A DNA stretch of 64,000 bases, taken from NCBI GenBank assembly GCA_942492935.1, contig OW818654.1, forward strand, positions 1,515,219 through 1,579,218, written 5' to 3'. The DNA comes from an uncultured bacterium (lineage in GTDB: Bacteria; Bacteroidota; Ignavibacteria; Kapaibacteriales; UBA2268). Positions within the stretch are counted from its first letter, which is position 1. Each line of letters opens with the position of its first letter. Below the pieces are notes generated by a model. It was not told the DNA's origin. It searched no databases and worked only from the letters and a program-made list of their open reading frames with translations. Shown here piece by piece: positions 4,222-64,000 of this stretch. Made by a program: the position numbers and the translations under genes.

Positions 4222-4554
4222 GTGAAATATGAAAAAAATATTAATTTTAAGTGTTATTGCAACAATTTCTATTTGCAATTTAATTTTACAAAATAGTGAA
4301 CTTATACAAATTTGACCAAAAATTAATTATTAATTATGAATAAAATAAATATGTATTCTACAATAGAGAATTATGTGAATTTAACTACAGATAATTGATT
4401 TTTTTATAAATAGTATGATTTTTTTTCTATTTTATTGCTATTTAATGAAATAAGTGAATTTTTTATTTTTCTATTCTAATTGAGTTTGTTAATTTTGTTT
4501 TTTTAAATATAAATTAATTAAATATTAAGTTTTAATAATCATTTTAGGTGTATA

Positions 4555-21196: not shown

Positions 21197-21456
21197 CAAA
21201 AACCAAACCCTCCTGGCTCGCATTTTCCTTCTCTAAATTCTTTTTTTGCTTCTTCTGCCATTTGCAATAATAATTTTTTAGATTCAGGACTTGCTAATAA
21301 TTCATCCCAAATTTCATCCCCGCTTTTTTGTCTTTTTGCATGACCGTTTGTGTGAATTTTATTTGATTTTGTTTCTTCTTTTGCTAACACAGTTACACCT
21401 TTAAAAATCAACTTAAATAAAAAATTATTGAATGATGAACAAGAAAAATATTGCAA
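21196..21456 (-). CDS. Putative cognate antitoxin (small acidic protein; the true start is probably internal)
   Basis: Translationally coupled to the toxin with a 1-nt stop/start overlap. The C-terminal …SGDEIWDELLASPESKKLLLQMAEEAKKEFREGK is helical and acidic. No homology is established. Confidence 0.4.
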   Translation of the reverse strand: MQYFSCSSFNNFLFKLIFKGVTVLAKEETKSNKIHTNGHAKRQKSGDEIWDELLASPESKKLLLQMAEEAKKEFREGKCEPGGFGF

Positions 21457-21473
21457 TATATAATAAAAACAGG

Positions 21474-21557
21474 TTTAATAGTCTGTTGATAAAATAAAAA
21501 TTTAATCTTCTATCAAGTGGTTAAAGCACCTGAAAGATGATTAAATTTATACTTTAT
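21474..21557. other. Candidate attL of the integrated element (imperfect copy of the 62159-62254 sequence; 21-bp identical core at 21537-21557)
   Basis: tttaaTagtctgttg … gtggTtaaagcac … ATGATTAAATTTATACTTTAT is matched in the same order at 62159-62254. Confidence 0.55.
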
Positions 21558-21881
21558 CAACAATTATTTAATTTATTAATGATATAAGAATCATTTTGAA
21601 TTTAATTATTAGAAAAGTAATAAACAATTTTAATTTTCATAACATCTTTGGGATATGTAGGATTAATAGGAATAGTATTTCGATAATCTATATAAATATA
21701 ATCATCATCATTTGAATACCAAATTTCATCAGTATATAGGGTGCCATCATCAAAGCAAAATTTTTTGTGGGGGGGGGTGGCTTCCCTATGTTTTTTTTTA
21801 TAAAAAAAAAAAATAATAAAATAATAATATTATAAAAAAAAAGTTATAAAAAAAAAAAAATATTTTTTTTTATATAATATA

Positions 21882-22037
21882 TGTTGTGTTGTTTTAATGG
21901 TTTTTTGGATAAAGTGTTACATATTCGACCCTAATATCTTCATTATCATCAATATAAGTTGGATTTTCAATTGTACATGAATTGATTATTATTGAAACAA
22001 AAATTATGAATCCTAACAAATATAAATTCTTTTTCAT
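21882..22037 (-). CDS. Small lipoprotein (51 aa), possibly the N-terminal part of a gene disrupted by the homopolymer tract at 21760-21900
   Basis: MKKNLYLLGFIIFVSIIINSCT… is a lipobox-like signal. A coding-looking fragment (…FCFDDGTLYTDEIWYSNDDDYIYIDYRNTIPINPTYPKDVMKIKIVYYFSNN*) continues downstream at 21602-21770 after the G9/T11/A13 tracts. Confidence 0.35.
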
Positions 22038-22234
22038 TTTTCATTCTCCAAATTAATAAACAAACATACTTACGTTACAAACAGTAATTATATTGTGTTA
22101 TAATTTTTTGTGTGGCTTGTATGTCTGCAATATCCGCATCTATTCTATGTTTTGTATTTTTTTTGTTCTGTTATTATACGTTGTTATTCGTTACTCTGTG
22201 TTTTGGTCGTTGCAATTACGTTGCAATTATTTTT

Positions 22235-23344
22235 TCAATTTACATATTTCCCGAGTTCATCACTATCTGTATAAGCATAATATTTCATTACTGTATCTAA
22301 ACTATCTCTTGATAATTTGCTAACTATTTGAGGAGTTAATTTTTCTGTATATAACCATTCTGATATTCTTGTTTTTCGCAAAGTATGAATACAACGACCA
22401 TAGACTGCTTTTCGTTTTCTTTCTATGCCTGATATATTCATTTGTTTTGTGTTCCCATCTCCTACGGTATATTTTGGAATATTTAATGCTTCCAATCCCT
22501 TATTAAACCTATAGTCAATCGTTCTTGAATAATCTGATATGTTGAATATTTTACCTTTGCTTTCTTTCCTACTTTCTACTTGGTCAAATATATTTTTCAA
22601 TTTATCTGTCAATGGAAATTTGTCGGGCTTGTTACCAAATTTTGATTTTTCAAACATTATACTTTGTCTGTAATCACCATCTGTATTTAAGACTTGGTCC
22701 CATTCCATATTAACCGCTTCATTTTTACGCAATGCACAAATATAGATAGTTTGTATTAATAGATAAAATTGATAATTCTTTTCTTGCCAATAATCAAATA
22801 TTTTTTTTATTTCCTCTGGAGTATATATTTCAATTATTTTTTCTGTTTTTTTAGGTTTTAATGTTTTAATAATTGGATTTTTCCGCATCCATTCTCTTTC
22901 GATACAGTAATTGAAAAAACTTGATAACCTAATTAAATTAACCGTTGCCGTTTTTGAAGCGTGATTTCGTTTCAATAAATTATTTTCTATATGCAGAGTA
23001 ATTTTATTATCGTCATTCAAAATTAAATCTTCTGTAATATATGATTTGAATGAATAAATGTATTGCTGAAGTGTGTTTTTATGCTTAGTATTTTTCGATT
23101 GCTCAATGAAGATTTTGAACGCTTGAATGATTGTTACAGGATGATTTTCATTTCTGAAATGTTCTGGGCTTTCACTTTCTGCAATTATATCACCTGCGAT
23201 TTTACGATTTTTACGATTATAAATCAAACCGCAGGATTTCATTCTATTGCCTACTTTGTACCATATAATGCTCTTTTTACCACGAACAAAAAACCGTCCT
23301 TTACAGCCGGGCATTGAGTACGGTTTTTCTGGTGCTTTTTCCAT
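22235..23344 (-). CDS. int: Tyrosine site-specific recombinase (phage integrase family)
   Basis: The C-terminal catalytic region contains …GRCIHTLRKTRISEW (the H-x-x-R box) and …LDTVMKYYAYTDSDE, which carries the catalytic Tyr. An N-terminal SAM-like domain is present. 369 aa. Confidence 0.85.
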   Translation of the reverse strand: MEKAPEKPYSMPGCKGRFFVRGKKSIIWYKVGNRMKSCGLIYNRKNRKIAGDIIAESESPEHFRNENHPVTIIQAFKIFIEQSKNTKHKNTLQQYIYSFKSYITEDLILNDDNKITLHIENNLLKRNHASKTATVNLIRLSSFFNYCIEREWMRKNPIIKTLKPKKTEKIIEIYTPEEIKKIFDYWQEKNYQFYLLIQTIYICALRKNEAVNMEWDQVLNTDGDYRQSIMFEKSKFGNKPDKFPLTDKLKNIFDQVESRKESKGKIFNISDYSRTIDYRFNKGLEALNIPKYTVGDGNTKQMNISGIERKRKAVYGRCIHTLRKTRISEWLYTEKLTPQIVSKLSRDSLDTVMKYYAYTDSDELGKYVN

Positions 23345-30139: not shown

Positions 30140-31078
30140 ATGAATAATTGGATTAAATTATACAGAGCATTAAATAAGCATTGGGTTTTTGATAATTCCG
30201 ATTATTTAAAATTGTGGATTTATATACTGACTACTTGTGAGTATGAAACGGCGATCCGTAATTCTAATACTAAAAAAATAGAACTTCAACCGGGACAAAT
30301 GCTTTTCACTTTGGAAAATATGAGTGAGGTTTGCAATATGCCATACATAAAAATCAGACGGTTTATTGACAGGTGCATAAAGGACGATATGATAAGTATT
30401 AAGCTAAATTGTAAACAAAATTCAGTGCTAAGTGTTTTAAATTGGGAGACTTACCAATCTGTAAATGTCAATGAAAATAACGAAAAAACATTGAGCAGTC
30501 ATTTGAGCAGTCATTTGAGCAGTCATTTGAGCAGTCATTTGAGCAGTCATTCTGACGTTGTAAATGATGAAATACCAAAGAGTTATAAAGATGACGAAAA
30601 TAATTTGAGCAGTCATTTGAGCAGTCATTTGAGCAGTCATTTGAGCAGTCATTTGAGCAGTTCATATAATGATAAAGAGAATCCTAAGAATCCTAAGAAT
30701 AAAAAGAAAGAAGAAATAACTACTTTCTCTACTGCAAAAATGAATTTTTTAAATTTTGATTTTGTTTTGGAATTTGTAATTAATTCAATTCCAGAATCAA
30801 AAGTAATTTCAGAAGAGAATTTAAAATTTTCAGTAGAGAAGTGGTTAAATCTTAGAACTAATTCCGAATGGCGAAATAAAAATGGTGTTTTGATTTCCGA
30901 TTGGAAACAGGACATTAAAACTTGGATCAAAAATGAAATTATTTATCAACAAAATTTAAAAGGAAATAAAAATGATAGAAGCACAAGAGCTGGCAAGCAT
31001 ATTGACGAACCACAACAGGTCAATATCGAAGACACACTCCGAAAATTCGAGCAATGGAGAGAGAAAAATAACACTTGA
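30140..31078 (+). CDS. Replication initiator/replisome-organizer-like protein with internal (SSHL)n repeats
   Basis: N-terminal winged-helix-like segment (…LKLWIYILTTCEY…QPGQMLFTLENMSEVCNMPYIKIRRFIDRC…). Two blocks of 5 x 12-bp direct repeats lie within the ORF. Confidence 0.45.
   Translation: MNNWIKLYRALNKHWVFDNSDYLKLWIYILTTCEYETAIRNSNTKKIELQPGQMLFTLENMSEVCNMPYIKIRRFIDRCIKDDMISIKLNCKQNSVLSVLNWETYQSVNVNENNEKTLSSHLSSHLSSHLSSHLSSHSDVVNDEIPKSYKDDENNLSSHLSSHLSSHLSSHLSSSYNDKENPKNPKNKKKEEITTFSTAKMNFLNFDFVLEFVINSIPESKVISEENLKFSVEKWLNLRTNSEWRNKNGVLISDWKQDIKTWIKNEIIYQQNLKGNKNDRSTRAGKHIDEPQQVNIEDTLRKFEQWREKNNT
30487..30663. repeat. Iteron-like tandem repeats (two clusters of 5 x AGCAGTCATTTG separated by ~55 bp) inside the replication-initiator-like gene
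   Basis: Perfect 12-bp direct repeats at 30487-30546 and 30604-30663. Confidence 0.8.
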
Positions 31079-43563: not shown

Positions 43564-46500
43564 TTAAGCACCAATTGACCACTTATTAACTGGTGCGGCT
43601 TCATTGTAAACGATATTGCAAGCATTAAGCAATGCAACTAATTCCACACAATTATAGCAACAACCACTCGCACCACTCGCACCATCTAAACCATTTTGTC
43701 CGCTGTAACCAGAAATTCCATCTGCACCATTTTGACCACTGTAACCTGATGCACCATTAATTCCACTAAACCAGCCACTATAACCTGAAATTCCACTCGC
43801 ACCATCTTGACCATTTTGACCGCTGTAACCTGAAAGACCATCTAAGCCATTTAGACCGCTGTAACCCGAAATTCCATTGCTTCCATTTTGACCACTGTAA
43901 CCTGAAATTCCGTTTGTACCATTTTGACCACTGTAACCTGAAATTCCACTTTGAGCTTGACCATTTGCACCCGAATAACCACTTAGTCCATCTGTACCAT
44001 TTTGACCACTTATTCCTGATTCGCCTTTTGCACCACTCGCACCTGACGCACCCGAAAAACCACTTTTTCCTGATGCTCCACTCCAGCCCGAATAACCACT
44101 GTAGCCACTAAGTCCTGATTTGTCCACCCACAATTTTAATGAAATATCGCCTGTGAATCCTGATATTCTTGTGTAGTCTTCAGTAGCTCCACTATATCCC
44201 GAAATTTGCCATTGTCCGTAAACTGTGAGAGGTTCTGCAACTGTACCCGAGAAGTCTTTGAAGTTTGCAGTTTGCCAATTCTTTTTACTGTCAATAATTG
44301 TATTGTTATGTCTCAATGTATTTGTTTGCATTGTATTTGGAATAATCGGATGCGAGAAATATGGTGTAATTAATGGATCTGTTGAATTACCAACTTTAAA
44401 TCCAGTAACTCCACCTGTTTGCTCAACTTTTACAACTAATCTGTGTCCGCTTTCCCAACTGAAACAACTTAAATCTGCTAAAAATGTATATATGCCACTA
44501 ACCGGTAATGTATCGGTAGAAATTTGACCTTTGTATGTTTCAGTACCATCTGCTTCTAAAGCATAGAATTTAAATGTTAAATATGCACTTCCTGATGAAG
44601 TAACATTCAAATTGAAAAACCATTTACCAAATGGGAAAATATCACCTGCTGGCTCAAAAGCATTTGCTAAGAATTTCAAATTTGTGAATGATGTGAAATT
44701 CACTTCTGCGTGAGATGGTTTACAACGTGAAATTACACGGAAACCTGCTTTGTCTGATGCGTCATTTGTGAAGAAAAATGTTTCATTTCCTGCACCGCCA
44801 TCACTACTTGCTCCACTATAACCACTATATCCCGATGCTCCCGCTGTACCTGTATCGCCTTTTGGTCCAGTTGCTCCACTTGTTCCAACTCCACTGTAAC
44901 CCGAAATCCCGTCTTGTCCTGAATAACCGCTGAATCCACTTCTTCCCGAAAATCCTGATGTTCCTTGTGTGCCTTGCTGTCCCGAATAACCACTAAATCC
45001 CGATGTTGATTGTCCCGAATAGCCACTAAATCCAGAAGTTCCAATTCCTGATTTACCACTCCAGCCCGAGAAACCACTTTTCCCTGACCAGCCCGAAAAT
45101 CCAGAAGTTCCAATTCCTGAATAACCTGATATACCACTTTCGCCTTGAATACCATTTTGACCACTGAAGCCCGAAGTTCCAATACCTGAATAACCACTAA
45201 AGCCCGATGTACCTACTCCAGAGAAACCGCTATAACCACTATATCCTGATGTTGAAGTTCCTGAATAACCACTAAAGCCCGATTCGCCCGGAATACCAAT
45301 ACCTGAACCATCTTGACCGCTGAAGCCCGAAAGCCCACTTTCGCCTTGAATACCTTGCTCACCTTTTTCGCCACTGTAACCACTAAAGCCCGATATTCCC
45401 GGTACGCCAATACCTGAACCATCAAGTCCACTATATCCACTATAGCCCGATGTTCCAATACCACTGTAACCCGAGAAACCGCTTATTCCTTGCGTTCCAA
45501 TTCCCGAAAATCCGCTGAACCCACTTGTTCCAATTCCCGAGAAACCACTTAGTCCTGATGTTCCAATTCCCGAATAGCCACTAAATCCTGATGTGCCTAC
45601 TCCCGAAAATCCACTTAGACCTTGCTCACCTTTTTGACCGCTGAAACCTGAAAAACCACTTATTCCCTGCGTTCCAATTCCCGAAAATCCACTAAGACCT
45701 GTATCGCCTTTTTGTCCACTGTACCCAGAAAAGCCCGAACTTCCAGCTCCACTAAACCCGCTATAGCCACTTGTTCCAATTCCTGAATAACCACTGAACC
45801 CACTTCTTCCCGAAAATCCTGATGTTCCAATTCCTGAATAGCCACTTTTGCCACTCCATCCACTGAAGCCCGAAGTTCCAATTCCCGAAAAACCACTTAT
45901 ACCTTGATCGCCTTTTTGTCCGCTGTAACCACTAAACCCGCTTGTTCCTATTCCCGAATAACCACTTTTGCCACTCCATCCACTGAAGCCCGAAGTTCCA
46001 ATTCCTGAATAACCACTAAAGCCCGATTCTCCCGGAATACCAATACCTGATCCATCTTGTCCTGAATAACCACTTTTGCCACTCCAACCACTGAAGCCCG
46101 AAGTTCCAATTCCGCTGTAACCCGAAAATCCACTTAATCCATCTTGACCACTGTAGCCCGATGTAGAAAGTCCTGAATAACCCGAGAAACCACTTGTTCC
46201 CGGAATACCAATACCTGAACCATCTTGTCCTGAATAACCACTTACGCCACTCCAACCACTGAAGCCCGAAGTTCCAATTCCAGAATAGCCACTGAATCCG
46301 CTTGTTCCAATTCCCGAATAACCACTGAACCCACTTGTTCCAATTCCCGAATAGCCACTGAATCCACTTGTTCCAATTCCTGAATAACCCGAAAATCCGC
46401 TTGTTCCTTCTGCACCATCTTGACCGCTGAAGCCCGAAATTCCACTTTCGCCATCTGTTCCATCTTGACCTGAATAACCTGATATTCCACTTTCGCCATC

Positions 46501-47475
46501 TATTCCATCTTGACCGCTGAAACCACTATAACCCGATGTAGAATTTCCCGAATAGCCACTAAATCCCGATGTTCCCGGAATACCAATTCCCGAACCATCT
46601 GCACCTGAATATCCCGAAAATCCACTTTCGCCTTGAATACCTTGATCGCCTTTCTCGCCACTGAAGCCCGAATAACCACTCAAACCTAAGCCCGAATAGC
46701 CACTGAAGCCCGAAGTTCCAACTCCACTGTAACCCGAAATTCCTCTCGAACCAACTGCACCCGAAAAACCGCTATATCCACTTGCACCATCTGAACCCGA
46801 ATAACCAACTCCCGAAAATCCACTTAGACCTTGCTCGCCTTTTTGTCCGCTGTAGCCACTAAATCCTGATGTTGCAATTCCCGAATAACCACTGAATCCA
46901 CTTGTTCCCGGAATACCAATACCTGAACCATCTGCACCCGAAAAGCCCGAATAACCACTGAAGCCACTTGGTCCATTTGCACCAATAATTCCATCTTGTC
47001 CCGAATAACCGCTGTAACCCGAAACTGAAATTCCCGAATAACCACTATACCCTGATGTAGAAACTCCACTGTAGCCCGAAAATCCACTTGTTCCCGGAAT
47101 ACCAATACCCGAACCATCTGCACCCGAATAACCGCTGTATCCACTTTCGCCAGAATAACCAACTCCCGAATAACCACTGTAGCCCGAAGTTGATAATCCA
47201 GAATATCCGCTGAAGCCACTTTCACCCGAAAATCCAAGTCCGCTGAAACCCGAAAAGCCCGATGTTCCCGGAATACCTACACCTGAACCATCAAGTCCAC
47301 TATATCCTGACATCCCAGAAAATCCTGAAAAACCACTGAACCCCGATCCTCCAGAATAGCCACTGAAACCGCTTTCTCCGTCATAACCACGTGGACCAAT
47401 TGGACCAACTGAACCACCGCCACCACCGCCGAAGCCGTTACCTTCTGTCCCAATTGGGATTGTTGAGCAACTCAT
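43564..47475 (-). CDS. Giant collagen-like repeat protein (1303 aa), candidate fibre/spike
   Basis: Hundreds of SG(F/Y/W)SG and G-X-Y units (…GFSGYSGIGTSGFSGYSGQKGEQG…, …GPKGDTGTAGASG…). A ~230-aa non-repetitive central domain lies around 44.1-44.8 kb. The C-terminal tail CCYNCVELVALLNACN is Cys-rich. Confidence 0.75.
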   Translation of the reverse strand: MSCSTIPIGTEGNGFGGGGGGSVGPIGPRGYDGESGFSGYSGGSGFSGFSGFSGMSGYSGLDGSGVGIPGTSGFSGFSGLGFSGESGFSGYSGLSTSGYSGYSGVGYSGESGYSGYSGADGSGIGIPGTSGFSGYSGVSTSGYSGYSGISVSGYSGYSGQDGIIGANGPSGFSGYSGFSGADGSGIGIPGTSGFSGYSGIATSGFSGYSGQKGEQGLSGFSGVGYSGSDGASGYSGFSGAVGSRGISGYSGVGTSGFSGYSGLGLSGYSGFSGEKGDQGIQGESGFSGYSGADGSGIGIPGTSGFSGYSGNSTSGYSGFSGQDGIDGESGISGYSGQDGTDGESGISGFSGQDGAEGTSGFSGYSGIGTSGFSGYSGIGTSGFSGYSGIGTSGFSGYSGIGTSGFSGWSGVSGYSGQDGSGIGIPGTSGFSGYSGLSTSGYSGQDGLSGFSGYSGIGTSGFSGWSGKSGYSGQDGSGIGIPGESGFSGYSGIGTSGFSGWSGKSGYSGIGTSGFSGYSGQKGDQGISGFSGIGTSGFSGWSGKSGYSGIGTSGFSGRSGFSGYSGIGTSGYSGFSGAGSSGFSGYSGQKGDTGLSGFSGIGTQGISGFSGFSGQKGEQGLSGFSGVGTSGFSGYSGIGTSGLSGFSGIGTSGFSGFSGIGTQGISGFSGYSGIGTSGYSGYSGLDGSGIGVPGISGFSGYSGEKGEQGIQGESGLSGFSGQDGSGIGIPGESGFSGYSGTSTSGYSGYSGFSGVGTSGFSGYSGIGTSGFSGQNGIQGESGISGYSGIGTSGFSGWSGKSGFSGWSGKSGIGTSGFSGYSGQSTSGFSGYSGQQGTQGTSGFSGRSGFSGYSGQDGISGYSGVGTSGATGPKGDTGTAGASGYSGYSGASSDGGAGNETFFFTNDASDKAGFRVISRCKPSHAEVNFTSFTNLKFLANAFEPAGDIFPFGKWFFNLNVTSSGSAYLTFKFYALEADGTETYKGQISTDTLPVSGIYTFLADLSCFSWESGHRLVVKVEQTGGVTGFKVGNSTDPLITPYFSHPIIPNTMQTNTLRHNNTIIDSKKNWQTANFKDFSGTVAEPLTVYGQWQISGYSGATEDYTRISGFTGDISLKLWVDKSGLSGYSGYSGWSGASGKSGFSGASGASGAKGESGISGQNGTDGLSGYSGANGQAQSGISGYSGQNGTNGISGYSGQNGSNGISGYSGLNGLDGLSGYSGQNGQDGASGISGYSGWFSGINGASGYSGQNGADGISGYSGQNGLDGASGASGCCYNCVELVALLNACNIVYNEAAPVNKWSIGA

Positions 47476-47823: not shown

Positions 47824-48150
47824 TCAACAATCTACCCATCCAGTAAATATATCATTTTTCAAAGCCGTATAAGCTGCATTGAACATAGCTTGTTTTGTAG
47901 ATTCTAAACCGTTTGGCAAAACAGCCAACGCATCGTTAATGTGTCCATAGCCGTTATACTGTCCTTGTTTGTATTTTTCGTACTCACTTAATCCTGCATC
48001 ATATCTTTGCCTTTGGTCTGCATTTGCAAAAATCAAAAAAGTTATATGATGATTACCCTTTGCAAAATCATATTGCATAGAGGTTATTTTTAAATATTCG
48101 CCTGTTGTTGCGTTTTGAATAGCCATTATAATCTTGTCTCCGTTGCCCAA
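47824..48150 (-). CDS. Hypothetical protein
   Basis: 108-aa ORF between the two collagen-like genes. Confidence 0.4.
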   Translation of the reverse strand: MGNGDKIIMAIQNATTGEYLKITSMQYDFAKGNHHITFLIFANADQRQRYDAGLSEYEKYKQGQYNGYGHINDALAVLPNGLESTKQAMFNAAYTALKNDIFTGWVDC

Positions 48151-49523
48151 ATATTTAATGAAAATCTTACTGAATTTGCACTATCGTGCTTCACTTCAAT
48201 CTTTAATGATTCGTTTGTATCGTCAGCTGTAACTTGACAATCCCAATTTGTAGTTCCACTATCAGCACCAACTACGGTTTTTGTTACAGAACCGACTAAT
48301 GATGTGTTATTACTTGCATCTCTTTTAATAGCACCAATTAACTCCCAAGTTTTCACACTAAAATCAGTTGCGTCAATAGCATTTAATTGTATTCTGAATT
48401 GATAAACTGAACTTGCAATTATTGTTAATCTTGCACTTGTAGCATCAACGAATAATTCTTGCCAAGCTGCCGAATTAGTAGTTAAATCTTTACTTGCATA
48501 TTTTTGCACAGCCAAATAAGACTTCCCATTAGCAATATAATCACCATTAATAGCCAATTCATTCGCTCTTTCGTTTACAGAATACGCTCCAAAAGCTATA
48601 GCACCTGGTCCAACTCCATTATAATTTGCTGATTTGCCTATAGCTACATCTCCACTGTTTGTGCCAGTATTTGCACCTATAGACACACCTTCGTTATATC
48701 CGTACGCACTTTTTCCAATAGCTACTCCATAGTTAAAAGATTTTGCACTGCCCCCAATCAACACTGACTCTTTATTTGCAAATACCCAATCTGTCCCATC
48801 ATAATAATATGTGCGTATTGCACCAGACCCCAAAGTATCAACTGCATTTCCTACACTTTTATAAACATACAATGCACTATTGGAATCAGCGTTATTATTC
48901 ATCACCGTAATTTTGTACCCTGCGGTGATACCTGTCGTTGGCAAATAAACATACTTGTCTGAGGTATTGTTCGGATTTAATATCTGTATTGTCGGACTAC
49001 TCGAAGTTAGTGTCTTATCAGCAGACAATGTTTCAATATTTACAGATTCACCGCCATTATTGCCACTATATCCACTGATTCCTGATGTTCCTATTCCACT
49101 ATATCCACTAAATCCCGATGTTCCTATTCCACTATAACCACTGAAGCCCGAAGTTCCTACTCCAGAATAACCTGAAATACCACTATCGCCTTGAATACCT
49201 TGTTCGCCATTTTGACCACTATATCCACTAACATTTGCACCACTATATCCACTAAATCCTGATATGCCCGGAATACCAATACCTGAACCATCTGCACCAG
49301 AATAACCTGATGTTCCACTTTCGCCTTGAATACCTTGTTCGCCTTTTTGACCACTGTAACCACTAAAGCCAGATGTTCCTACTCCCGAATAACCACTTAT
49401 TCCACTTACCCCGAAGCCCGAAAATCCAGAAAAACCAGATCCGCCACTAAATCCACTGAATCCACTCCAGCCCGAAAAACCCGATGTATCAGCCATTTGT
49501 CCTCCTAAATCCAACAAGCCCAC
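48126..49523 (-). CDS. Collagen-like repeat protein 2 (465 aa), paralogous N-terminal GYSG-repeat shaft plus a C-terminal globular domain
   Basis: The N-terminal ~190 aa carry the same SGFSGYSG/GxxGxQG repeats as the 1303-aa protein. The ~270-aa C-terminal domain is non-repetitive. Confidence 0.7.
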   Translation of the reverse strand: MGLLDLGGQMADTSGFSGWSGFSGFSGGSGFSGFSGFGVSGISGYSGVGTSGFSGYSGQKGEQGIQGESGTSGYSGADGSGIGIPGISGFSGYSGANVSGYSGQNGEQGIQGDSGISGYSGVGTSGFSGYSGIGTSGFSGYSGIGTSGISGYSGNNGGESVNIETLSADKTLTSSSPTIQILNPNNTSDKYVYLPTTGITAGYKITVMNNNADSNSALYVYKSVGNAVDTLGSGAIRTYYYDGTDWVFANKESVLIGGSAKSFNYGVAIGKSAYGYNEGVSIGANTGTNSGDVAIGKSANYNGVGPGAIAFGAYSVNERANELAINGDYIANGKSYLAVQKYASKDLTTNSAAWQELFVDATSARLTIIASSVYQFRIQLNAIDATDFSVKTWELIGAIKRDASNNTSLVGSVTKTVVGADSGTTNWDCQVTADDTNESLKIEVKHDSANSVRFSLNIWATETRL

Positions 49524-55269: not shown

Positions 55270-58200
55270 TTAACAATCATTACAATCACAATCATCTGAA
55301 TTGCAGTCGCAATCACAATTTTTTCTTTTTCTATTTTCAGTAACCGGTGCATATTCAAATACAGTTTTTTTGTATTCTTCAACCATTGCCGGAATTTTCT
55401 TTTTATCACAATCAGTACATTCACCACTAATATTACTTTGTGGCATATATGGATCTACACTTGGTATATTTGGAGTAACTTGTGGAGCATAAGGAGTAAC
55501 ATCTGGTACATAAGGAGTTCCTTGTGGTACGTAAGGTGGTATAACATCTGCTGGTACGTAAGGAGTAACTTGCGGAACATAAGGTTCTACAGTAGGTACA
55601 TAAGGAGTAACTTGCGGAACATAAGGCTCTACATTTGGTACATACGGAGTTACTTGCGGAACATAAGGTTCTACAGTTGGTACATACGGAGTTACTTGCG
55701 GAACATAAGGTTCTACAGTAGGTACATAAGGAGTAACTTGCGGAACGTAAGGTTCTACAGTTGGTACATAAGGAGTAAAACCACTTTGAGCTACAAAACC
55801 GCTATTACTTTCTTTAATTATAATTACACAATTTGCAGTATCTACCTCGTAAGCTGTACCATTAATCACCACAAAATACTTGCTTGTACCTCCAACTTGT
55901 CTATATGCTTTAATTCGTGTAGTTGGCTGTTCATCATTCAATGTTACTTTGAATGGTGGCAATGTTGGCATTGCTCTGTTTTGTGTATCTGTCGGACTTG
56001 GCATTAACACATCTTGCGGAGGAGTGATGAACAAATTAGTATTTGGATTTGCTGGAGATTTAATTTCCGGCATAACTCTATTTGTATTGTCCGCAGGAAT
56101 AATATTAACAGTTGGAAATACGCTTGTAACGGGATTATTTACTGGACTTTGCATAATTTCATTGCCTACTGATTGAGTAAACAATGGATTAGTTGGAATA
56201 ATCGGCATTGTTGTTAAAGTTGCTTTCGCTGACTTTGGAACAAACCAATATTGACCATCAATAATTTCAATACAAGGAGGTAAATTATAATCTACACTAC
56301 CTGAATAGCCACTAAATCCACTTTGTACCAAATAACCGCTGTTACTTTTTACATCAAAATTATTAACATCCTTACTTGAATATCCTGATACATTTGTATT
56401 AGTGTTTGTATTAGTATTTGTATTTGTATTAGTATTTGTATTAGTATTTGTATTGGTGTTTGTATTAGTATTTGTATTGGTATTTGTATTGGTATTTGTA
56501 TTAACATCTTTATCAATACGAATATCTTTATTTACAGTAACCGTTGTATTTTCACTAACACAAGACCGTTTCATTGCATCATAAGTATATCCCGGAGGAC
56601 AGTAAATGATTTTCTTCTTAACTTCTTTTTCTAATTCAATTTTAAAACATTCTGCTTCTTCTGGACAGATATTTGGAGGAAGAATAAATATATCAGTTGA
56701 AGTACCTAAAGCATTTGCTTGACTTTTTAATGAATCATATAAAAATGGTTTAAATATTGAATTATTTGGAATATGCCCGAATACACTTTGAATTAATCCT
56801 GCGTGAATTTCTGCGTTACTACTGCCATCTTTCCATCCTAAATTTGTATCGTAAGCATTTTTATTCCCAAGTATAGCAATTGCAAATTTATCTATACTCG
56901 GCATCATTGGTAATATAGTTTGATTTGAGCCAGCAATAAATAAATCTCTTACAATTGGAATATCAGTAATAAATTGTTGGTCTGCAATTGCACTTACAAG
57001 AGTTTGAGAATCTAAACTTCTACCTATTTTATTAATCATTTGCATAGTTTTAGTATTTTCAACTAATTTCTGCACATATTTAAAACTTTTAGAATCAGTA
57101 TATTGTGATAAATCAATATTAATGGCATTACCAATATTGCTATAAGCATTTCTTATAGCTAATCCTAATTCTTCATTTATACCTAATTTCTCAAATTCTA
57201 CTACTGAACCTTTCCATATTTTATCTAATGCCACTTGTGCATCTTGAAGTATTGGACCAAATGTTGTTTTCAATGATTTACCAACACCATCAGCCCAAGT
57301 CATAATCCCACCTTTAATATTTTCTGGAATTATATAATCTGCTGTTTGAGCAAGTGTTGTAATTGCACTAAAGGCGTTTATTTCACCACCATTAGCATAA
57401 TTTTGTAAGTTTTGAGATATTCCTTTTAAAATAGCAGGGTCAAACGCATTAGCTAACCCGGGTATTCCGGGTAATATACTTGCTACAGTTGAAATAACAG
57501 TTGCTAACTCCCTTTTCCACTTGTCGCCATCTTGCTTGTTAATAACCCAAACGAAATTAAATGGTATTTTCTTTTTAAACTGATAGCCCATTGTAAATAG
57601 TTCTACTTGTTTAATCATACCCGGCAAATTTCCTCTTTGGCTCATAATCATATCTTTTAATGCTTGAGCTTTTCCTTTCTCCCAACCAATTGATACTGCT
57701 TTCATATATGGATTTCTTGTATTTCTATCATCCATAGACAATGCAAATGAACCTGAAGAGCTAAATGCTTCGTAACCACCAATACGGTCAGCCATTCTTT
57801 CTGCCCAACCGTTACCAGTACTGCTATCCCAATTTAATTCTACTAAACAAAAATCTGGACCAATTAAACCACTTTCTACTAAATATTTAGTTTGTGCATT
57901 TGGCTGTGATAATATGAAATGTAAATTTCCATAATTATCTTTAAATATTCCAAATCCCGTATGTGTTTCTGATGGTCTTTGGCTATTGAAAACAGCACCA
58001 CGAGGATCACCACCTGCATAACTATTGCTTGCTTTTGTTATATCAGCTAATACTCTTTTATTTTTTAATTGTGAATAATGCAATAAATTACCAGTAGATG
58101 GTACTTTAATTGTATATTCTTTACAATTCGGAATAGGCGGACAAGGTATTGGCTCTTTCGCTGGTGGAGGTGGAGGAGGAGTTTCAACTACATCAGTTGT

Positions 58201-59004
58201 GCCACTATAACCACTATAAACATTTATTCCACTATAGCCACTACTGCCCGATTTGCCAACATTAATTTCATCTTTTACAATTTCACTTTCAGTAATTTTT
58301 GCTTGAAAACAATCACGACCTTTGTAAGGTTTGTATGTTCCTGAACAATTTTGCTTTTCAATATGTGAAAATAATATGCCTGTTGTTCTTTGATAGCAAT
58401 GTGAGATTGGATATTCATAAACTGCAATACCATCTTGAGTAGTATCGCCATCACCAGACAAGCCCGTAGTACCAACTTTTACATTACCTTCAACTGTAAT
58501 AAATCTTGCATCATCAACATAAATCACTATTCCCATATGTCCCGAATTGTTTGAACTTGTAGAATAACGATAAAATATTGACCCAACAGCTGGGTAGTAA
58601 TCTGTTTGATAAACTGATTGTAATTTTTTAATGGTATCGAATGCGTTACCTGATAAGTTTCTTGGGAATTTATCAATTGATTGGCAACCTATTAATTTTG
58701 TTGCTTCTCTAATTACATAAGCTGGAAAATAAACACACCACGCTTCGCCTTTAGCTTTTTCACTTGGGGTTAAGCCCTTATAATCTCTAATAAATGTTTC
58801 TACACAACTATTTGGCTCTGTAAAATTTCCATTTCCGTCATATTTTTCATAACATTGTGCTTCCGCCCACCAACGAGCTACGCAAACTATTTGATTACCA
58901 ATTTCTGACTGTGTTTTCTTGGTAAAAAAATACTTGCTCAATAGTGTATTATCTACAAGAGCAATGCTTTTAGCTAAATTACTTGGGTAAGCTGAATAAG
59001 CCAT
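55270..59004 (-). CDS. Giant multidomain protein (1244 aa) with N-terminal CHAP peptidase domain, poly-Pro linker, large central domain, (TN)~20 and 14-aa PYVPxVxPYVPQVT repeats, and a Cys-rich tail
   Basis: CHAP Cys context …GEAWCVYFPAYVIREATK…. CHAP His context …NSGHMGIVIYVDDARFITVEGNVKV…. PPPPPPAKEPIPCPPIP. NTNTNT… x20. Five to six PYVP repeats. C-terminal CDCDCNSDDCDCNDC. Confidence 0.7.
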   Translation of the reverse strand: MAYSAYPSNLAKSIALVDNTLLSKYFFTKKTQSEIGNQIVCVARWWAEAQCYEKYDGNGNFTEPNSCVETFIRDYKGLTPSEKAKGEAWCVYFPAYVIREATKLIGCQSIDKFPRNLSGNAFDTIKKLQSVYQTDYYPAVGSIFYRYSTSSNNSGHMGIVIYVDDARFITVEGNVKVGTTGLSGDGDTTQDGIAVYEYPISHCYQRTTGILFSHIEKQNCSGTYKPYKGRDCFQAKITESEIVKDEINVGKSGSSGYSGINVYSGYSGTTDVVETPPPPPPAKEPIPCPPIPNCKEYTIKVPSTGNLLHYSQLKNKRVLADITKASNSYAGGDPRGAVFNSQRPSETHTGFGIFKDNYGNLHFILSQPNAQTKYLVESGLIGPDFCLVELNWDSSTGNGWAERMADRIGGYEAFSSSGSFALSMDDRNTRNPYMKAVSIGWEKGKAQALKDMIMSQRGNLPGMIKQVELFTMGYQFKKKIPFNFVWVINKQDGDKWKRELATVISTVASILPGIPGLANAFDPAILKGISQNLQNYANGGEINAFSAITTLAQTADYIIPENIKGGIMTWADGVGKSLKTTFGPILQDAQVALDKIWKGSVVEFEKLGINEELGLAIRNAYSNIGNAINIDLSQYTDSKSFKYVQKLVENTKTMQMINKIGRSLDSQTLVSAIADQQFITDIPIVRDLFIAGSNQTILPMMPSIDKFAIAILGNKNAYDTNLGWKDGSSNAEIHAGLIQSVFGHIPNNSIFKPFLYDSLKSQANALGTSTDIFILPPNICPEEAECFKIELEKEVKKKIIYCPPGYTYDAMKRSCVSENTTVTVNKDIRIDKDVNTNTNTNTNTNTNTNTNTNTNTNTNTNTNTNTNTNTNVSGYSSKDVNNFDVKSNSGYLVQSGFSGYSGSVDYNLPPCIEIIDGQYWFVPKSAKATLTTMPIIPTNPLFTQSVGNEIMQSPVNNPVTSVFPTVNIIPADNTNRVMPEIKSPANPNTNLFITPPQDVLMPSPTDTQNRAMPTLPPFKVTLNDEQPTTRIKAYRQVGGTSKYFVVINGTAYEVDTANCVIIIKESNSGFVAQSGFTPYVPTVEPYVPQVTPYVPTVEPYVPQVTPYVPTVEPYVPQVTPYVPNVEPYVPQVTPYVPTVEPYVPQVTPYVPADVIPPYVPQGTPYVPDVTPYAPQVTPNIPSVDPYMPQSNISGECTDCDKKKIPAMVEEYKKTVFEYAPVTENRKRKNCDCDCNSDDCDCNDC
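55440..55800. repeat. 42-bp tandem repeat, about 6-8 units (encodes the PYVPxVEPYVPQVT repeats)
   Basis: ggttctacagt(a/t)ggtacata(a/c)ggagt(a/t)acttgcggaac(a/g)taa units. Confidence 0.8.
56395..56520. repeat. Hexanucleotide (TN-dipeptide) tandem repeat, about 20 units
   Basis: (gtattagtatttgtattggtatttg…), period 6. It encodes (NT)n in the 1244-aa protein. Confidence 0.85.
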
Positions 59005-61104: not shown

Positions 61105-61440
61105 TTAGAAAATATTTGTTGAATAGTCGTAATCTTGTAACTCTTCTGGAATGAATGACTTAGAATTTTTTTCTGTGTGAATTTTTGTGAATTTATTCCT
61201 AAACTGTCTAAGATTGGAATAAAATTTGTCGGGAGAATTAAGAATGAAACCGCAGTTAGCTTTTTTCTTTTTGCACTTATGATAAAATTGAAAACAAGCG
61301 TCTTTCAGAGACAGATATTTGCCGTCATTAATCCACTCATCAATAATGGCTACAGTAGTTATTTTTAATCGAAAAGTAACAGGATTCTCTGACTTCATTG
61401 TAAAAACCGTTGCAATTCCGTTGCAAAAAAGTAATTGCAA
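61105..61440 (-). CDS. Hypothetical protein, the first gene of the long leftward block
   Basis: 111-aa ORF. No ORF lies upstream for about 1.5 kb. Confidence 0.35.
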   Translation of the reverse strand: MQLLFCNGIATVFTMKSENPVTFRLKITTVAIIDEWINDGKYLSLKDACFQFYHKCKKKKANCGFILNSPDKFYSNLRQFRNKFTKIHTEKNSKSFIPEELQDYDYSTNIF

Positions 61441-61462
61441 AACTACAACGAAAAAACAAAAA

Positions 61463-61494
61463 AAGCAAGTAGAATTTTCAACTACTTGCTTTTT
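61463..61494. terminator. Hairpin with A-run and T-run flanks (bidirectional terminator-like) at the edge of a 1.5-kb non-coding tract
   Basis: AAGCAAGTAGaattttcaaCTACTTGCTT followed by TTTT. Confidence 0.5.
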
Positions 61495-62158
61495 AATGAC
61501 TTACAATTTTTATTTTTTATTTTTTAATGCCGTTTTTTGTACTTTACGAGTAATATTCACTACAGTAATTATGTTTCAAAATAAATTGTGTAATTCGTAA
61601 CTACCCAGTCCCTAAATGAAAAAATTACGTGCTATTTACGGCTAACTATTTTATAAATCATCCAATGTTTTGAAAAAATAGGATATTTGACTACAAGATT
61701 TGATTAGAAAGATGTATTCTTATAATTGAATTTTTATTATGAAAAATCCTTGAACATCCCAGCGGGATTGAATAGTTCAAATACATATTCATCACCTACG
61801 GTGTTGCAGGAGGCGATGGGAGATTCTTCAGTTAAAAACATTAATTCCCTACGGGAATTTCAAGGAATTTTTAAAAAATAACAAAAATTCTAAATGATCT
61901 ATAAGCGACTGAGTGGTTACAATTTATTTTGTTAAAAATTATAAAAATTTAAAATATTCCTTGAAAATCCCATAGCGTTTAAATTACTTTTAAATAATTT
62001 CAGGAAAAGGTAACTCGTAGGGACAAGTCGCGACCTGTCTTAACAAAAGACCTGTCTCTACATAAGACCAATCCTGCATTTTATTATTTTTACAAAAATC
62101 CAAGTTGGGTATTCATGGAATTTTTTTTATTTTTTTCAGAAATTTAGTATTATTAGTT

Positions 62159-62254
62159 ATTTAACAGTCTGTTGCTCAAGTAATATAGAAATGCTCTTGT
62201 TCGTGGCTAAAGCCACGAGTTGATTACTGAATCTGAAACACGTGGCTTTAACCA
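62159..62254. other. Candidate attR (longer version of the 21474-21557 sequence; two internal hairpins; 21-bp identical core at 62233-62253)
   Basis: tttaaCagtctgttg…CGTGGCtaaaGCCACG…CACGTGGctttaaCCACGTG…ATGATTAAATTTATACTTTAT. It is bracketed by AACAGTCTGTT at 62163 and AACAGACTGTT at 62287. Confidence 0.55.
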
Positions 62255-62954
62255 CGTGAATTATGATTAAATTTATACTTTATAAACAGACTGTTTACGA
62301 GCAAATGCTTAATAAATTAAATCTTCATAGTAGTTTCATTTTAAGTTTTATACTTAAAAAGTATAGTTGCACTCTAATTTGTTGATAAATTGCAATACAT
62401 AATTTATATTATAAAAAATTACATAATATTTGAATTGATTATGTTAAAATTTTAAATAACATCTTTATATATTAATCAAAAATATTTTTTGAGGTGAAAT
62501 ATTTTTCTTGGATATTTCATTGAAAATTGAAATTGTTGATTGTAAGCAAGTTTCAAAAATAACAATTTCCAAAATGCTGATTGAATGGGCATTTTGAGGT
62601 ATGAATGAAGAGATATTTTTACTAATAGTGATAACTTATTGAATTTAAAACAAGTAATCAATTGTTAAAAAAAAGTTAAAAAATGATTAACTTATAAGTC
62701 TTTGTATAACTAATACTTAAAATATCCAAAAGAAAAAAGTTCAAAAAAAAAATTAAATTTGTTGTATTATTTGAAAAAAAATTGGAAATTTAAATAAGGA
62801 AAAAAATGAAATTTTAAAAAAGTTATTTGATTGATTTCATTTTTTACAATGATGAGAGAGATGATTATTGCCCAAATTTATTTTGGGTAATAGAATTTTC
62901 GGGGAAAATATTTTAATAAAGGAAGAGAAAGTGAATTATACTAACAGTATTACA

Positions 62955-64000
62955 ATGGATTTGTTTACTTTTACAAGTACGGCAGAGAGTACTCTGACAA
63001 AATCAAGTTGTACTGATAAGATTCAAAAACCAGCTACAGCATTATGGAACAAATGCCTGAAAATTATCAAAGATAATGTAAATGATTCAGTTTATAAAAC
63101 TTGGTTTAAACAGATTGAAGCTCTTAAGTGGGAAAGAAATAGATTAACCCTTATGGTACCAAGTCAGTTTTTTATTGAATGGATAGAAGAGCATTATTAC
63201 GATTTGTTAAAGAATACTGTGTCGAAAGTCTTAGGGGATGATGCAGGTATTATTTACCAAATTGTAATTGATGATAGTAGTAATGACTCACTCGAAGAAA
63301 GAACTATTAAGGTGCCAGGTTTTAAATTTAATCCCAAAACCACTCAAAATAGTCTTCAATTTGCAGACCCCAAACCAGAACCTCCGTTTGAGACTAATTT
63401 GCAAGCCAGATACTCATTTGAGAATTTTGTAACAGGTGATAGTAATCAATTAGCATCATCGGCTGCAATTGCTGTAGCTCAGAAACCAGGCGGAACTAAA
63501 TTTAATCCATTGGTAATTTATGGCGATACTGGTCTTGGCAAAACACATCTTGCACAAGCTATAGGTAATTATATCGCTCACAATAGCCCTAAATTAAGAA
63601 TATTATTTACTAATAGCGAGAAATTCTATTTTGATTTTATCAATGCTATTCAAAATAATAAAACTCGTGAATTTGTAAATTTTTATCGTTCTATTGATGT
63701 ATTGATTGTTGATGATATACAGTTTTTTGCAGGTAAAGGTAAAACTCAGGATAATTTTTTCCATACTTTCAACGCATTGCATCAAGCTGGTAAGCAATTG
63801 ATATTTACATCCGATAGACCGCCAAGAGAACTAAAAGATGTTGATGACAGACTTATATCACGCTTTCAATGGGGTTTAACTGTTGATATTCAGCCACCTG
63901 ATCTTGAAATGCGTATGGCTATTTTGCAAAAGAAGAGTTTAGATGAAGGTATTGAAATTCCACATGATATCATCGACTACCTTGCAAGAAATGTCAATTC
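62955..64000 (+). CDS. dnaA: Chromosomal replication initiator DnaA (3'-partial; runs off the window)
   Basis: The N-terminal region …LWNKCLKIIKDNVNDSVYKTWFKQIEALKWERNRLTLMVPSQFFIEWIEEHY… is DnaA-like. The AAA+ Walker A is NPLVIYGDTGLGKTHLAQAIG and the Walker B region is VLIVDDIQFFAGKGKTQDNFFHTFN. Confidence 0.9.
   Translation, partial: MDLFTFTSTAESTLTKSSCTDKIQKPATALWNKCLKIIKDNVNDSVYKTWFKQIEALKWERNRLTLMVPSQFFIEWIEEHYYDLLKNTVSKVLGDDAGIIYQIVIDDSSNDSLEERTIKVPGFKFNPKTTQNSLQFADPKPEPPFETNLQARYSFENFVTGDSNQLASSAAIAVAQKPGGTKFNPLVIYGDTGLGKTHLAQAIGNYIAHNSPKLRILFTNSEKFYFDFINAIQNNKTREFVNFYRSIDVLIVDDIQFFAGKGKTQDNFFHTFNALHQAGKQLIFTSDRPPRELKDVDDRLISRFQWGLTVDIQPPDLEMRMAILQKKSLDEGIEIPHDIIDYLARNVN

Follow-up and report, generated by a model that had tools for sequence, protein, structure and literature searches.

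Putative IS66/ISBst12-type MITEs and palindromic elements between a prophage and dnaA in a Kapabacteria-like genome

Insertion sequences of the IS66 family have ends that begin with GTAA and produce 8-bp direct repeats (PMC11946415). ISDge4 is a member of the ISBst12 group of this family, with the TIRs GTGACTACTCAGCA and GTAACTGCTCAGCA and an 8-bp direct repeat (PMC12898284). A search of the literature returned no paper that joins a MITE with ISBst12 or with Ignavibacteria, and none was found that describes an IS66/ISBst12-type MITE for Kapabacteria or Ignavibacteria. A second point of reference is provided by the lambda-type and tRNA-targeting phages, in which tandem repeats lie on both arms of the attachment core, near the integrase gene.

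The window analysed here is a stretch of 64,000 nucleotides from an uncultured bacterium (contig OW818654.1). As described in an earlier note on this DNA, a prophage-like region lies just upstream of dnaA. The genes of the prophage include a tyrosine integrase, CI-like repressors, a DnaD-like helicase loader, tail fibres and an endolysin-like domain, and it is syntenic with an unintegrated relative, the phage contig L077. Between its last gene and dnaA lies a tract with a local repeat family. The best explanation of this tract as a whole, with a probability of roughly 0.78, is a patchwork of selfish DNA and palindromic elements and not a phage control region. The annotation is thereby corrected, as the seeming phage arm sites, origin or non-coding RNA would instead represent a MITE family of the IS66/ISBst12 type.

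The gene-free tract and its putative MITEs

The features of the tract, and a related fragment elsewhere in the window, are:
61105–61398, minus strand: last phage gene, 97 aa from ATG 61398
61462–61494: hairpin with a 13-bp stem (AAAAAGCAAGTAG...CTACTTGCTTTTT) and flanking A and T runs, read from the sequence
61597–61920, minus strand: putative MITE copy 1, complete, 324 bp, with TIRs GTAACTACCCAGTC (61597–61610) and GTAACCACTCAGTC (61907–61920, minus strand)
61921–~62185, plus strand: putative MITE copy 2, degenerate, 5′-truncated by ~58 nt with loss of the TIR at that end, and arranged in tandem with copy 1
15325–15350, minus strand: solo B-module fragment of the putative MITE family (motif copy 4), downstream of norB

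The absence of genes from the tract was seen again. The longest stop-to-stop frame in 61441–62930 spans 62 aa and no conserved ORF is present. The GC content is 24.6% for 61441–62954 and 19.5% for the host side (62300–62950), in agreement with the extreme AT-richness described before. Other intergenic DNA is likewise about 22% GC. For the last phage gene, ATG 61398 is the most likely start (giving MKSENPVTFRL, as in its homologue in L077), and the 111-aa ORF from TTG 61440 is probably over-extended, so that the non-coding tract would begin at 61399 and not at 61441. In tblastx the gene shows 39.6% identity over 96 aa to the gene after attP in L077, and it has a weak match to phrog_35398.

Hairpins were confirmed at 61462–61494, 62202–62217 and 62239–62258. 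The first of these looks like a bidirectional terminator, and the attP of L077 carries an equivalent hairpin, followed by TTTTTTTGTTTTTG, in the same place. A search of the whole window against Rfam 15 at gathering thresholds gave no matches, and relaxing the search to E ≤ 10 for 61300–63000 gave only chance-level matches to snoRNAs and sRNAs. There are no tRNAs within the window.

The repeated motif was queried as TCCTTGAA(M)ATCCC with up to 2 mismatches allowed. All three copies reported earlier are present, at 61747–61760 (plus), 61853–61866 (minus) and 61958–61971 (plus), with starts about 2 nt away from those first given. A fourth match lies at 15334–15347 (minus). The window therefore holds 4 matches against 1.04 expected, a count reached in 1 of 100 shuffles. 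The perfect inverted copy about 46 kb away also exists, with a length of 26 bp and not 25 (61744–61769 against 15325–15350), and its continuation, ACATATTTGTA, is that of the B-type consensus. Copies 1 and 2 contain a hairpin of 5–6 bp (ATCCC-AGC-GGGAT and ATTCCC-GTA-GGGAAT), which is degenerate in copy 3 (ATCCC-ATA-GCGTT). The consensus, AATTCCTTGAAAWTCCC-N3-4-GGGAWTA...TTTGTAA, describes a module of ~40 nt that occurs once near each end of a larger element, in inverted orientation and as the two subtypes A and B. This module is the best-conserved part of the element and may serve as a promoter or bind the transposase. Between the modules, the sequence of the centre is weakly kept and its length differs from copy to copy.

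Judged from sequence comparison, the motif is the subterminal module of a putative small non-autonomous transposable element bounded by TIRs, a MITE of the IS66/ISBst12 type. The element would be a MITE of 325–350 bp with the 14-bp TIRs GTAACTACTCAGCC, and its insertion would generate an 8-bp target-site duplication. From these two features, its movement would presumably depend on a DDE transposase of the ISBst12 group of the IS66 family, supplied in trans from elsewhere in the genome. The units that were recovered measure 324–350 bp and contain no transposase ORF, and the lone transposase in the window belongs to the IS110 family. A peptide encoded in the MITE was considered and rejected, as the reading frames are not conserved across six copies. 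Similarly, Pfam gave no match for a 51-aa ORF spanning the motif pair, and the frame is not kept in the other copies.

The order TIR, module, hairpin-rich centre, inverted module, TIR is common to the window and to units on four other contigs (L016, L019, L020 and L025). Full copies lie in intergenic host DNA from at least three further sources, and an nhmmer profile detected a further full copy (E = 3e-61) on L080, a contig fetched for an unrelated reason. Perfect 8-bp target-site duplications flank the copies on L025 (AATTCAAA) and L020 (AATTAGTG), and 6 of 8 positions agree on L016. No duplication was found at the complete copy of the window (TGTAATTC vs AATTTATT), nor at L019, L080 and L017. 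The genes next to the copies encode an amidohydrolase and an AhpD-like protein (L020), a histidine kinase (L025) and an ECF sigma factor (L080). The copies are dispersed, with the element on four contigs of the MAG RXS1_metabat.bin.37; the window itself carries one full copy, one truncated copy and the solo fragment 46 kb distant. A metagenome scan covered 55 loci, of which only L025 and L058 are relevant. TIRs of the family type begin with GTAA or GTGA, and the TIR consensus agrees with the TIR of ISDge4 at 13 of 14 bases, as does that of L058 (GTGACTACTCAGCC). Among the phages of IMG/VR and INPHARED no relative of the MITE was found.

Copy 1 holds motif copy 1 (B module, 61744–61769) and motif copy 2 (A module, 61843–61869). 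Its TIRs are the sole matches in the window at ≤1 mismatch. It aligns with four other units (nhmmer E = 1e-70) and is 86.6% identical to the L025 unit over 134 nt, with about 55 nt of the centre missing. An internal deletion of this length would have created motif copy 1. Copy 2 holds motif copy 3 (61955–61984), a decayed A module (~62098–62135) and the two GACCTGTCT repeats noted before, which lie 17 nt apart at 62032 and 62049. Its local alignment to positions 59–341 of the L019 unit reaches a score of 107, where shuffled sequences reach 80 at most; the alignments of L020 and L025 are similar, and blastn matches were obtained as well. No significant similarity to the lost left end of copy 2 was found to the left of copy 1 or near the integrase gene.

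The right junction of the prophage

The features that bear on the junction are:
22235–23344, minus strand: tyrosine integrase of the prophage (phrog_1, 1.2e-32)
22208–22229, plus strand: candidate P′ arm sites, two perfect tandem copies of CGTTGCAATTA, 5 nt past the integrase stop codon
61408–61442, plus strand: candidate P arm sites, CGTTGCAATTC and CGTTGCAAAAA followed by an inverted ATTGCAA, 10 nt upstream of the ATG of the last phage gene
61562–61572, plus strand: favoured attR core candidate, ACAGTAATTAT, with its partner at 22081–22091
21480–21565: palindromic element PE-L, with the 21-mer at 21537–21557, an inverted 18/21 copy at 21489–21509 and the stem TGTTGATAAA/TTTATCAACA
62163–62297: palindromic element PE-R, with an 11-bp closing stem (AACAGTCTGTT/AACAGACTGTT), hairpins at 62202–62217 and 62239–62258, and the 21-mer at 62263–62283

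The Pfam domains Phage_integrase and Phage_int_SAM_5 fall slightly under their cut-offs in the integrase. No relatives of the protein were found in IMG/VR or INPHARED, and none of a 226-aa protein in IMG/VR. As arm-type integrase sites of the phage itself, the most likely candidates are the 11-nt tandem repeats CGTTGCAATTA, which lie by the integrase stop and by the start of the last phage gene. The P arm candidate matches 22208–22226 over 19 nt, the best local alignment between the two ends of the prophage. Of the 4 occurrences of CGTTGCAAT in the window (0.71 expected), 3 fall at the ends of the prophage. A tandem repeat with an 11-nt period follows directly after the integrase stop in 5 of 5 integrase relatives (L077, L078, L079, L081 and L082), each with 11-nt repeats of its own, and a second set precedes the next gene in L077 and L081.

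The earlier note had placed attR about 700 bp from dnaA, at the right-hand copy of a 21-bp direct repeat. The repeat is real: ATGATTAAATTTATACTTTAT occurs exactly at 21537–21557 and 62263–62283, and at ≤3 mismatches the window holds 3 copies against 0.07 expected. As an attachment core, the repeat has the drawback that it lies within paralogous hairpin elements and implies an attP about 6 times the length of those of the relatives. The distance between the arm sites is ~1504 bp with the 21-mer and 259 bp with the 11-mer ACAGTAATTAT; in L077 and L081 it is 240 and 206 bp. An attP of ~1.5 kb against these values indicates that the MITEs are probably host DNA. The 11-mer is the longest direct repeat between the arm-flanking zones; taken by itself it lacks significance, as 29 of 300 shuffles equal it. 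The right junction is thus placed, with fair but not firm confidence, near 61562–61572, with the MITEs, the hairpin element that contains the 21-bp repeat and everything further right being host DNA. This places attR probably ~1.37 kb from dnaA.

The two palindromic elements each fold as a hairpin of their own and resemble each other on both flanks of the 21-mer. The DNA fold has an energy of −27.5 kcal/mol (z = −5.95) for PE-R and −19.3 kcal/mol (z = −5.6) for PE-L, and the two align over 58 nt with a score of 59 against a shuffle maximum of 35. The 11-mer AACACGTGGCT of PE-R is also present on L014, a contig without phage genes, where it lies in the end of a palindromic element situated ~600 bp upstream of dnaA. 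A comparison of 61921–62300 with the DNA upstream of dnaA in L014 and L017 gave no significant alignment, merely this shared GC-rich 11-mer.

The alternative that survives best keeps the MITE reading and takes the 21-bp repeat as the true att core, the phage or prophage having acquired two MITE copies and small cargo ORFs. This is considered unlikely, although it deserves attention. The 21-mer is statistically solid, and its perfect identity within copies that are otherwise ~68% identical is a classic signature of a recombination core, which counts against the compact junction. MITEs can insert anywhere, and cargo genes often adjoin att sites. The hairpin of the reconstructed attB is also good (−21.1 kcal/mol, z = −7.3). 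Against this, the reconstructed attP folds worse than the observed units; the comparison of observed and recombinant configurations is not decisive. The arms must have grown to 650 and 850 bp, with MITEs in one only, and the CGTTGCAATTA repeats would be too distant from the core, so that the prophage may be fixed at its site. PE-L and PE-R show homology throughout, including the supposedly phage-derived and host-derived sides, and the GC-rich 11-mer of PE-R recurs in the same-place L014 element with no phage genes nearby.

An empty attB or an excised attP was not found in the following searches. Exact look-ups of the window proteins and of an identical integrase (P0121) gave nothing on record. 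Among the DnaA relatives, L013 ends 420 bp upstream of dnaA and the synteny of L014 and L017 differs, as it does on L080, which carries a homologue of the 706-aa T9SS protein. The 21-mer has 0 matches in IMG/VR. Under the compact junction, the prophage boundary probably shifts by ~700 bp and the likely true arm-type sites can be named. This matters for tools that predict prophage boundaries because a significant direct repeat can pass for an att site.

Other readings of the repeated motif

The paired modules may be convergent promoters, or pairs of a promoter and a terminator, which produce a small sense or antisense RNA or drive the flanking genes. Each would have a hairpin operator set between a TTG and a TTTG element, the transposable element having been co-opted for regulation, a reading compatible with a MITE. 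The arrangement TTG-N18-nAnnTTTG resembles the −33/−7 promoter of Bacteroidetes. Conservation within the transposable element is highest in the module, whose hairpin pairing survives an A-T to T-A swap; the covariation is a single event that divides the two subtypes. In L017 a module lies ~185 nt upstream of, and is aimed at, a DNA methyltransferase gene within TIRs. The orientation of the modules has no consistent relation to the adjacent genes, and TAnnTTTG is not enriched upstream of the window genes (7 sense vs 9 antisense vs 5 in shuffles). With no match in Rfam and an inter-module centre that is poorly conserved and variable in length, this explanation is regarded as improbable.

The motif was first proposed to be a set of integrase arm-type sites, a phage origin or packaging site, or a non-coding RNA. 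In the fullest version of this proposal, the 21-bp repeat is the att core, 61441–62262 belongs entirely to the phage, and the TCCTTGAA-hairpin motifs serve as arm sites for integrase or excisionase, or as a phage origin or packaging site. The exact direct repeat does flank a region of 40.7 kb, with the integrase at one end and the tail and lysis genes at the other, and the three motif copies are spaced ~105 nt apart. The motif is not specific to phages. It is found within TIR-bounded units in the host intergenic DNA of other genomes, prophage-free ones among them, and one copy lies 46 kb off in the host DNA of the window; the family is thus spread, qualitatively, beyond this spot. Arm-type sites would be expected on both arms within ~150 bp of the core, and to be particular to the phage and co-vary with the integrase among relatives. 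The motifs stand 300–520 bp away from the 21-mer, all to one side of it. The attP of related phages measures only 266–289 bp and holds different tandem repeats at the arm positions. In IMG/VR the motif gives only chance matches in high-GC coding DNA and is absent from low-GC contigs. The proposal is now very hard to sustain, and the MITE reading is preferred.

Least credible of all is an inverton, with the inverted modules or TIRs as recombination sites like those of the invertible promoters of Bacteroides: inverted repeats do flank a short segment and invertons are common in the FCB group, to which the host belongs, but no recombinase gene adjoins the copies on L020, L025 and L080, the 60–130 bp between the modules are very short for inversion, and the perfect 8-bp direct duplications flanking the TIRs point to transposition and not inversion.

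The dnaA upstream region and comparison with known systems

The remainder of the window consists of:
62298–62930, plus strand: AT-rich region upstream of dnaA, ~20% GC, compared in a four-genome alignment
62931–64000, plus strand: dnaA, with its start at GTG 62931 or ATG 62955, continuing past the window end

The dnaA product matches the Pfam families DnaA_N and Bac_DnaA (2e-66), with homologues in Kapabacteria/Ignavibacteria. In the four-genome alignment, the upstream region is kept in the relatives from ~62520 and includes a near-invariant block at 62688–62795. The claim that only degenerate DnaA boxes are present stands in substance. From the 21-mer to dnaA, a single 9-mer comes within 1 mismatch of a DnaA box: TGTTGATAA, at 62380–62388, one base from the position given before. 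No cluster of boxes was found in 62284–62954. The window as a whole contains 30 DnaA-box-like 9-mers against 24.75 expected, and the GC skew inside it just tracks gene orientation. An oriC, as presumed in the earlier note, would be expected to combine a group of DnaA boxes with an AT-rich unwinding element where the GC skew of the whole replicon switches.

In the relative L017, a TIR-bounded cassette with an orphan DNA methyltransferase lies ~590 bp upstream of dnaA. A speculative extension, given rather little weight, is that the A and B modules act as mobile regulatory units, either a promoter with its hairpin operator or a terminator, which this MITE family brings next to genes, with the region upstream of dnaA as a recurrent landing pad. 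It draws on the prophage, the two MITE copies and the hairpin element of the window, together with the methyltransferase cassette of L017. If true, insertions of this kind might affect the expression of dnaA or the working of the origin. The dnaA upstream region of this lineage appears to collect mobile DNA, which is relevant to the prediction of origins.

With regard to known phages, the candidate arm sites follow the lambda-type arrangement, as tandem repeats on both arms of the core and near the integrase gene. The relatives L077 and L078 are similar to a lambda-type attP with arm-type sites, and have a 3′ tRNA fragment within or next to attP. Unlike the tRNA-targeting phages, the phage of the window carries no tRNA fragment, and it has inserted into AT-rich intergenic DNA upstream of dnaA.

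The putative MITE resembles the ends of ISDge4 of Deinococcus geothermalis in its TIR (13 of 14 bases against GTGACTACTCAGCA) and, at the copies on L025 and L020, in a perfect 8-bp target duplication. The absence of an internal transposase, the length of 325–350 bp and the dispersed intergenic copies are those of an ISBst12-group MITE. It differs from ISDge4-type relatives in its Kapabacteria/Ignavibacteria-like lineage and in the conserved 40-nt hairpin module, of which the subtypes A and B are placed one at each end, and in that a full-length cognate IS was not seen. The Correia elements of Neisseria are similar in that they are short intergenic repeats bounded by TIRs, with internal conserved sites, and may provide their neighbours with promoters or RNA hairpins. 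They differ in their TA duplication and in belonging with another transposase family.

Motif copies and the element that carries them

The motif and hairpin features reported by the earlier note for the gene-free tract upstream of dnaA are present, with coordinates shifted by 1-2 nt. With up to two mismatches allowed, the pattern TCCTTGAA(M)ATCCC has four matches in the window, against a shuffle mean of 1.04:

61747, + strand: motif copy 1
61853, - strand: motif copy 2
61958, + strand: motif copy 3
15334, - strand: motif copy 4

The stretch 15325-15350 is a perfect 26-bp inverted match of 61744-61769. Short hairpins are present in copies 1 and 2, while that of copy 3 has decayed. Several hairpins lie in the tract too, as does a GACCTGTCT pair at 62032 and 62049. 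It has no reading frame longer than 62 aa, and its GC content is 24.6%, with 19.5% for 62300-62950. To judge from DnaA homologues and T9SS sorting domains, the host is a Kapabacteria/Ignavibacteria-like bacterium.

A pattern scan for the extended motif, covering one genome per species, located it on four separate contigs (L016, L017, L019 and L020) of the low-GC MAG RXS1_metabat.bin.37. The flanks of these loci reveal the common architecture of a small non-autonomous transposable element (MITE). It begins with a 14-bp terminal inverted repeat (TIR), GTAACTACTCAGYC, followed by 40-95 nt of subterminal sequence and a module of ~40 nt, AATTCCTTGAAAWTCCC-N3-4-GGGAWTA(A/C)AT(G/A)TTTGTAA. The centre consists of 60-130 nt of small hairpins, beyond which lie an inverted ~40-nt module, further subterminal sequence and the inverted TIR. 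Each complete unit contains one module of subtype A (ATTCCC/GGGAAT, then AATGTTTGTAA) and one of subtype B (AATCCC/GGGATT, then ACATATTTGTAA). In the window, only copy 2 belongs to subtype A; copies 1 and 4, and in decayed form copy 3, belong to B. Pairing in the module hairpin holds in 94% of cells. Its sole covarying pair (AU in seven sequences, UA in six) divides the subtypes and so is counted as a single event.

TIR matches with up to one mismatch occur in the window only at 61597-61610 (+) and 61907-61920 (-), a pair that encloses motif copies 1 and 2. Two further loci, L025 and L058, were added by a metagenome scan, with 86.6% identity between L025 and window 61888-61756. By comparison with L025, the window copy is missing ~55 nt of its centre, a deletion by which a central hairpin became joined to the right-hand module, giving rise to motif copy 1. 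The adjoining stretch 61923-~62171/62185 can be aligned with positions 59-341 of the L019 unit, at a score of 107 where shuffles reach at most 80. On this alignment it is a second, decayed copy in tandem, without its first ~58 nt, and it includes a degenerate A module (~62098-62135) as well as motif copy 3 and the GACCTGTCT repeats. When five units were made into a profile, it picked up a complete copy (E = 3e-61) on L080, a contig originally retrieved for a T9SS-protein homologue, independently of the MITE search. The copies are neighboured by ordinary host genes, those compared have no conserved reading frame, and an Rfam search returned no family match. The proposal that the motif is a phage site was not borne out, as it is a MITE module in the host DNA of other contigs.

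At ~4342-4409, upstream of the HU gene, a weak remnant is similar to the MITE's outer end (79% identity over 72 nt to L025 471-542). Adjoining the solo module (motif copy 4), 15100-15290 contains 4-5 copies of a palindromic repeat of another kind, GGATTCTGAAACAAGTTCAGAATGA, which looks REP-like and lies where the T9SS-protein and norB genes converge. Host positions 12008-12973 carry a transposase gene of the IS110 family (DEDD_Tnp_IS110 and Transposase_20). Arrays of 21-nt tandem repeats, such as ATTAACGGACTAACAATAATT, stand beside the MITE copies on the JADHED01 metagenome contigs (L025:620-850 and L058:2090-2380).

Candidate integrase arm sites and the probable right junction of the prophage

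The features that bear on the junction are as follows:

22235-23344, - strand: prophage integrase, with a 44%-identical relative on L077
21480-21565: PE-L, a shorter paralogue of PE-R (z = -5.6), with one 21-mer and an inverted 18/21 copy
62163-62297: PE-R, a hairpin element holding the other 21-mer (-27.5 kcal/mol, z = -5.95)

The L077 contig is a phage in attP form, in which 289 bp separate the integrase from a homologue of the window's last gene, and the genes beyond are homologous to the window's next ones, with their order kept. The tandem repeat TTTGTACCACA x2 occurs twice in the 289 bp, immediately past the integrase stop and immediately ahead of the next gene, and the interval also has a tRNA 3' fragment and a terminator hairpin. 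A second relative, L081, has a similar layout with a repeat of its own, and three others (L078, L079 and L082) each have a tandem repeat of 11-nt period immediately 3' of the integrase stop. The window shares the L077 layout, with CGTTGCAATTA x2 at 22208-22229 and CGTTGCAATTC/CGTTGCAAAAA at 61408-61429 beside the equivalent terminator hairpin. By analogy, these repeats are plausible candidates for the arm-type sites, rather than the TCCTTGAA motif.

The arm sets are 240 bp apart in L077 and 206 bp apart in L081. In the window they would be 259 bp apart with a junction at the 11-mer ACAGTAATTAT (22081 and 61562), the longest direct repeat between the arm-flanking zones, which alone is not significant (29/300 shuffles do as well). 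Because the inter-arm distance is short in both relatives, geometric analogy favours a compact attP with its junction at this 11-mer, to which a probability of roughly two in three is given. The segment 61573-62262 would then be host DNA.

The earlier note had taken the 21-mer (21537-21557 and 62263-62283) as the att core, which would set the arms ~1504 bp apart. The perfect 21-bp identity of its copies is left unaccounted for by the compact attP, but an att core here is unlikely. PE-L and PE-R are alike on both flanks of the 21-mer, and the GC-rich 11-mer of PE-R, AACACGTGGCT, recurs (P ~0.01) in a palindromic element of a relative (L014), at the same place upstream of dnaA with no phage genes nearby. 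A TIR-bounded element of the MITE family also lies ~590 bp upstream of dnaA on L017, which again supports a host origin for 61573-62262. Weighing against the compact attP, no empty attachment site was found. Placement of the prophage next to dnaA stands, while the attR position previously assigned is probably wrong, given the arm spacing, the PE likeness and the L014 and L017 evidence. PE-L and PE-R, which enclose the prophage plus about 1.2 kb and have the perfect 21-mer in common, may represent an older element's ends, a REP-like family or the true att sites.

PE-L is adjoined on its left by a ParE-like toxin gene (PF24732) and a likely antitoxin ORF (20939-21456). The low-complexity stretch 21770-21900, in which long A and T runs come after a run of eight G, separates a 47-aa lipoprotein-like ORF (21894-22037, minus) from an ORF remnant that has no start. 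Within the prophage, the genes at 43564-47475 and 48126-49523 (GC markedly higher, up to 47%, with many degenerate 33-nt repeats) encode collagen-like Gly-rich tail-fibre proteins, the second with PHROG tail-fibre matches. The 1244-aa protein of 55270-59004 is endolysin-like at its N terminus and also has PYVP(T/Q)V(E/T) repeats and a long run of (NT)n, for which the gene carries tandem repeats of 42 nt and 12 nt. Tandem 12-nt repeats, TTTGAGCAGTCA, occur at 30459-30673 within the DnaD-like helicase loader gene (30140-31078).

DNA upstream of dnaA

The gene itself is placed as follows:

62931 (GTG) or 62955 (ATG): start of dnaA (Pfam Bac_DnaA, 2e-66)

Its upstream DNA is kept from ~62520 in three relatives. 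A non-coding block at 62688-62795 (...TTAAAATATCCAAAAGAAAAAAGTTCAAAAAAAAAATTAAATTTGTTG...), ~140-240 bp upstream of dnaA, is near-invariant across four genomes, against just 76-82% identity in their dnaA coding DNA, and it is probably a dnaA promoter, regulatory or origin element. With regard to a possible oriC, between the 21-mer and dnaA there is one DnaA-box-like 9-mer (up to one mismatch), not kept in relatives; over the window there are 30, not above the chance expectation of 24.75. GC skew within the window tracks gene orientation, with no switch at dnaA.

The L014 contig, which lacks phage genes and encodes an 84%-identical DnaA, has its 157-nt palindromic element (1388-1544, CACGTGGCTGAAG ends) ~600 bp upstream of dnaA, the position of PE-R. 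In L017:1609-3669 (JANJUO010000048.1), MITE TIRs surround a 2-kb segment containing one module and then a gene for a 529-aa N6/N4 DNA methyltransferase (Pfam N6_N4_Mtase, 4e-49). This segment looks like a MITE-type cassette with an orphan methylase.

Transposition and relation to known insertion sequences

Perfect 8-bp direct duplications touch the TIRs in L025 (AATTCAAA) and L020 (AATTAGTG). The 8-mers flanking the L016 TIRs match at 6/8 positions, and no target duplication was seen at the window copy, L019, L080 or L017. The ends of IS66 elements begin with GTAA and yield 8-bp repeats (PMC11946415). ISDge4, of the ISBst12 group of the IS66 family, has the ends GTGACTACTCAGCA and GTAACTGCTCAGCA and an 8-bp direct repeat (PMC12898284). 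The TIR consensus of the present element is identical to the first end of ISDge4 at 13 of 14 positions. From this match and the 8-bp repeats, the unit is classed as a putative MITE of ISBst12-type origin.
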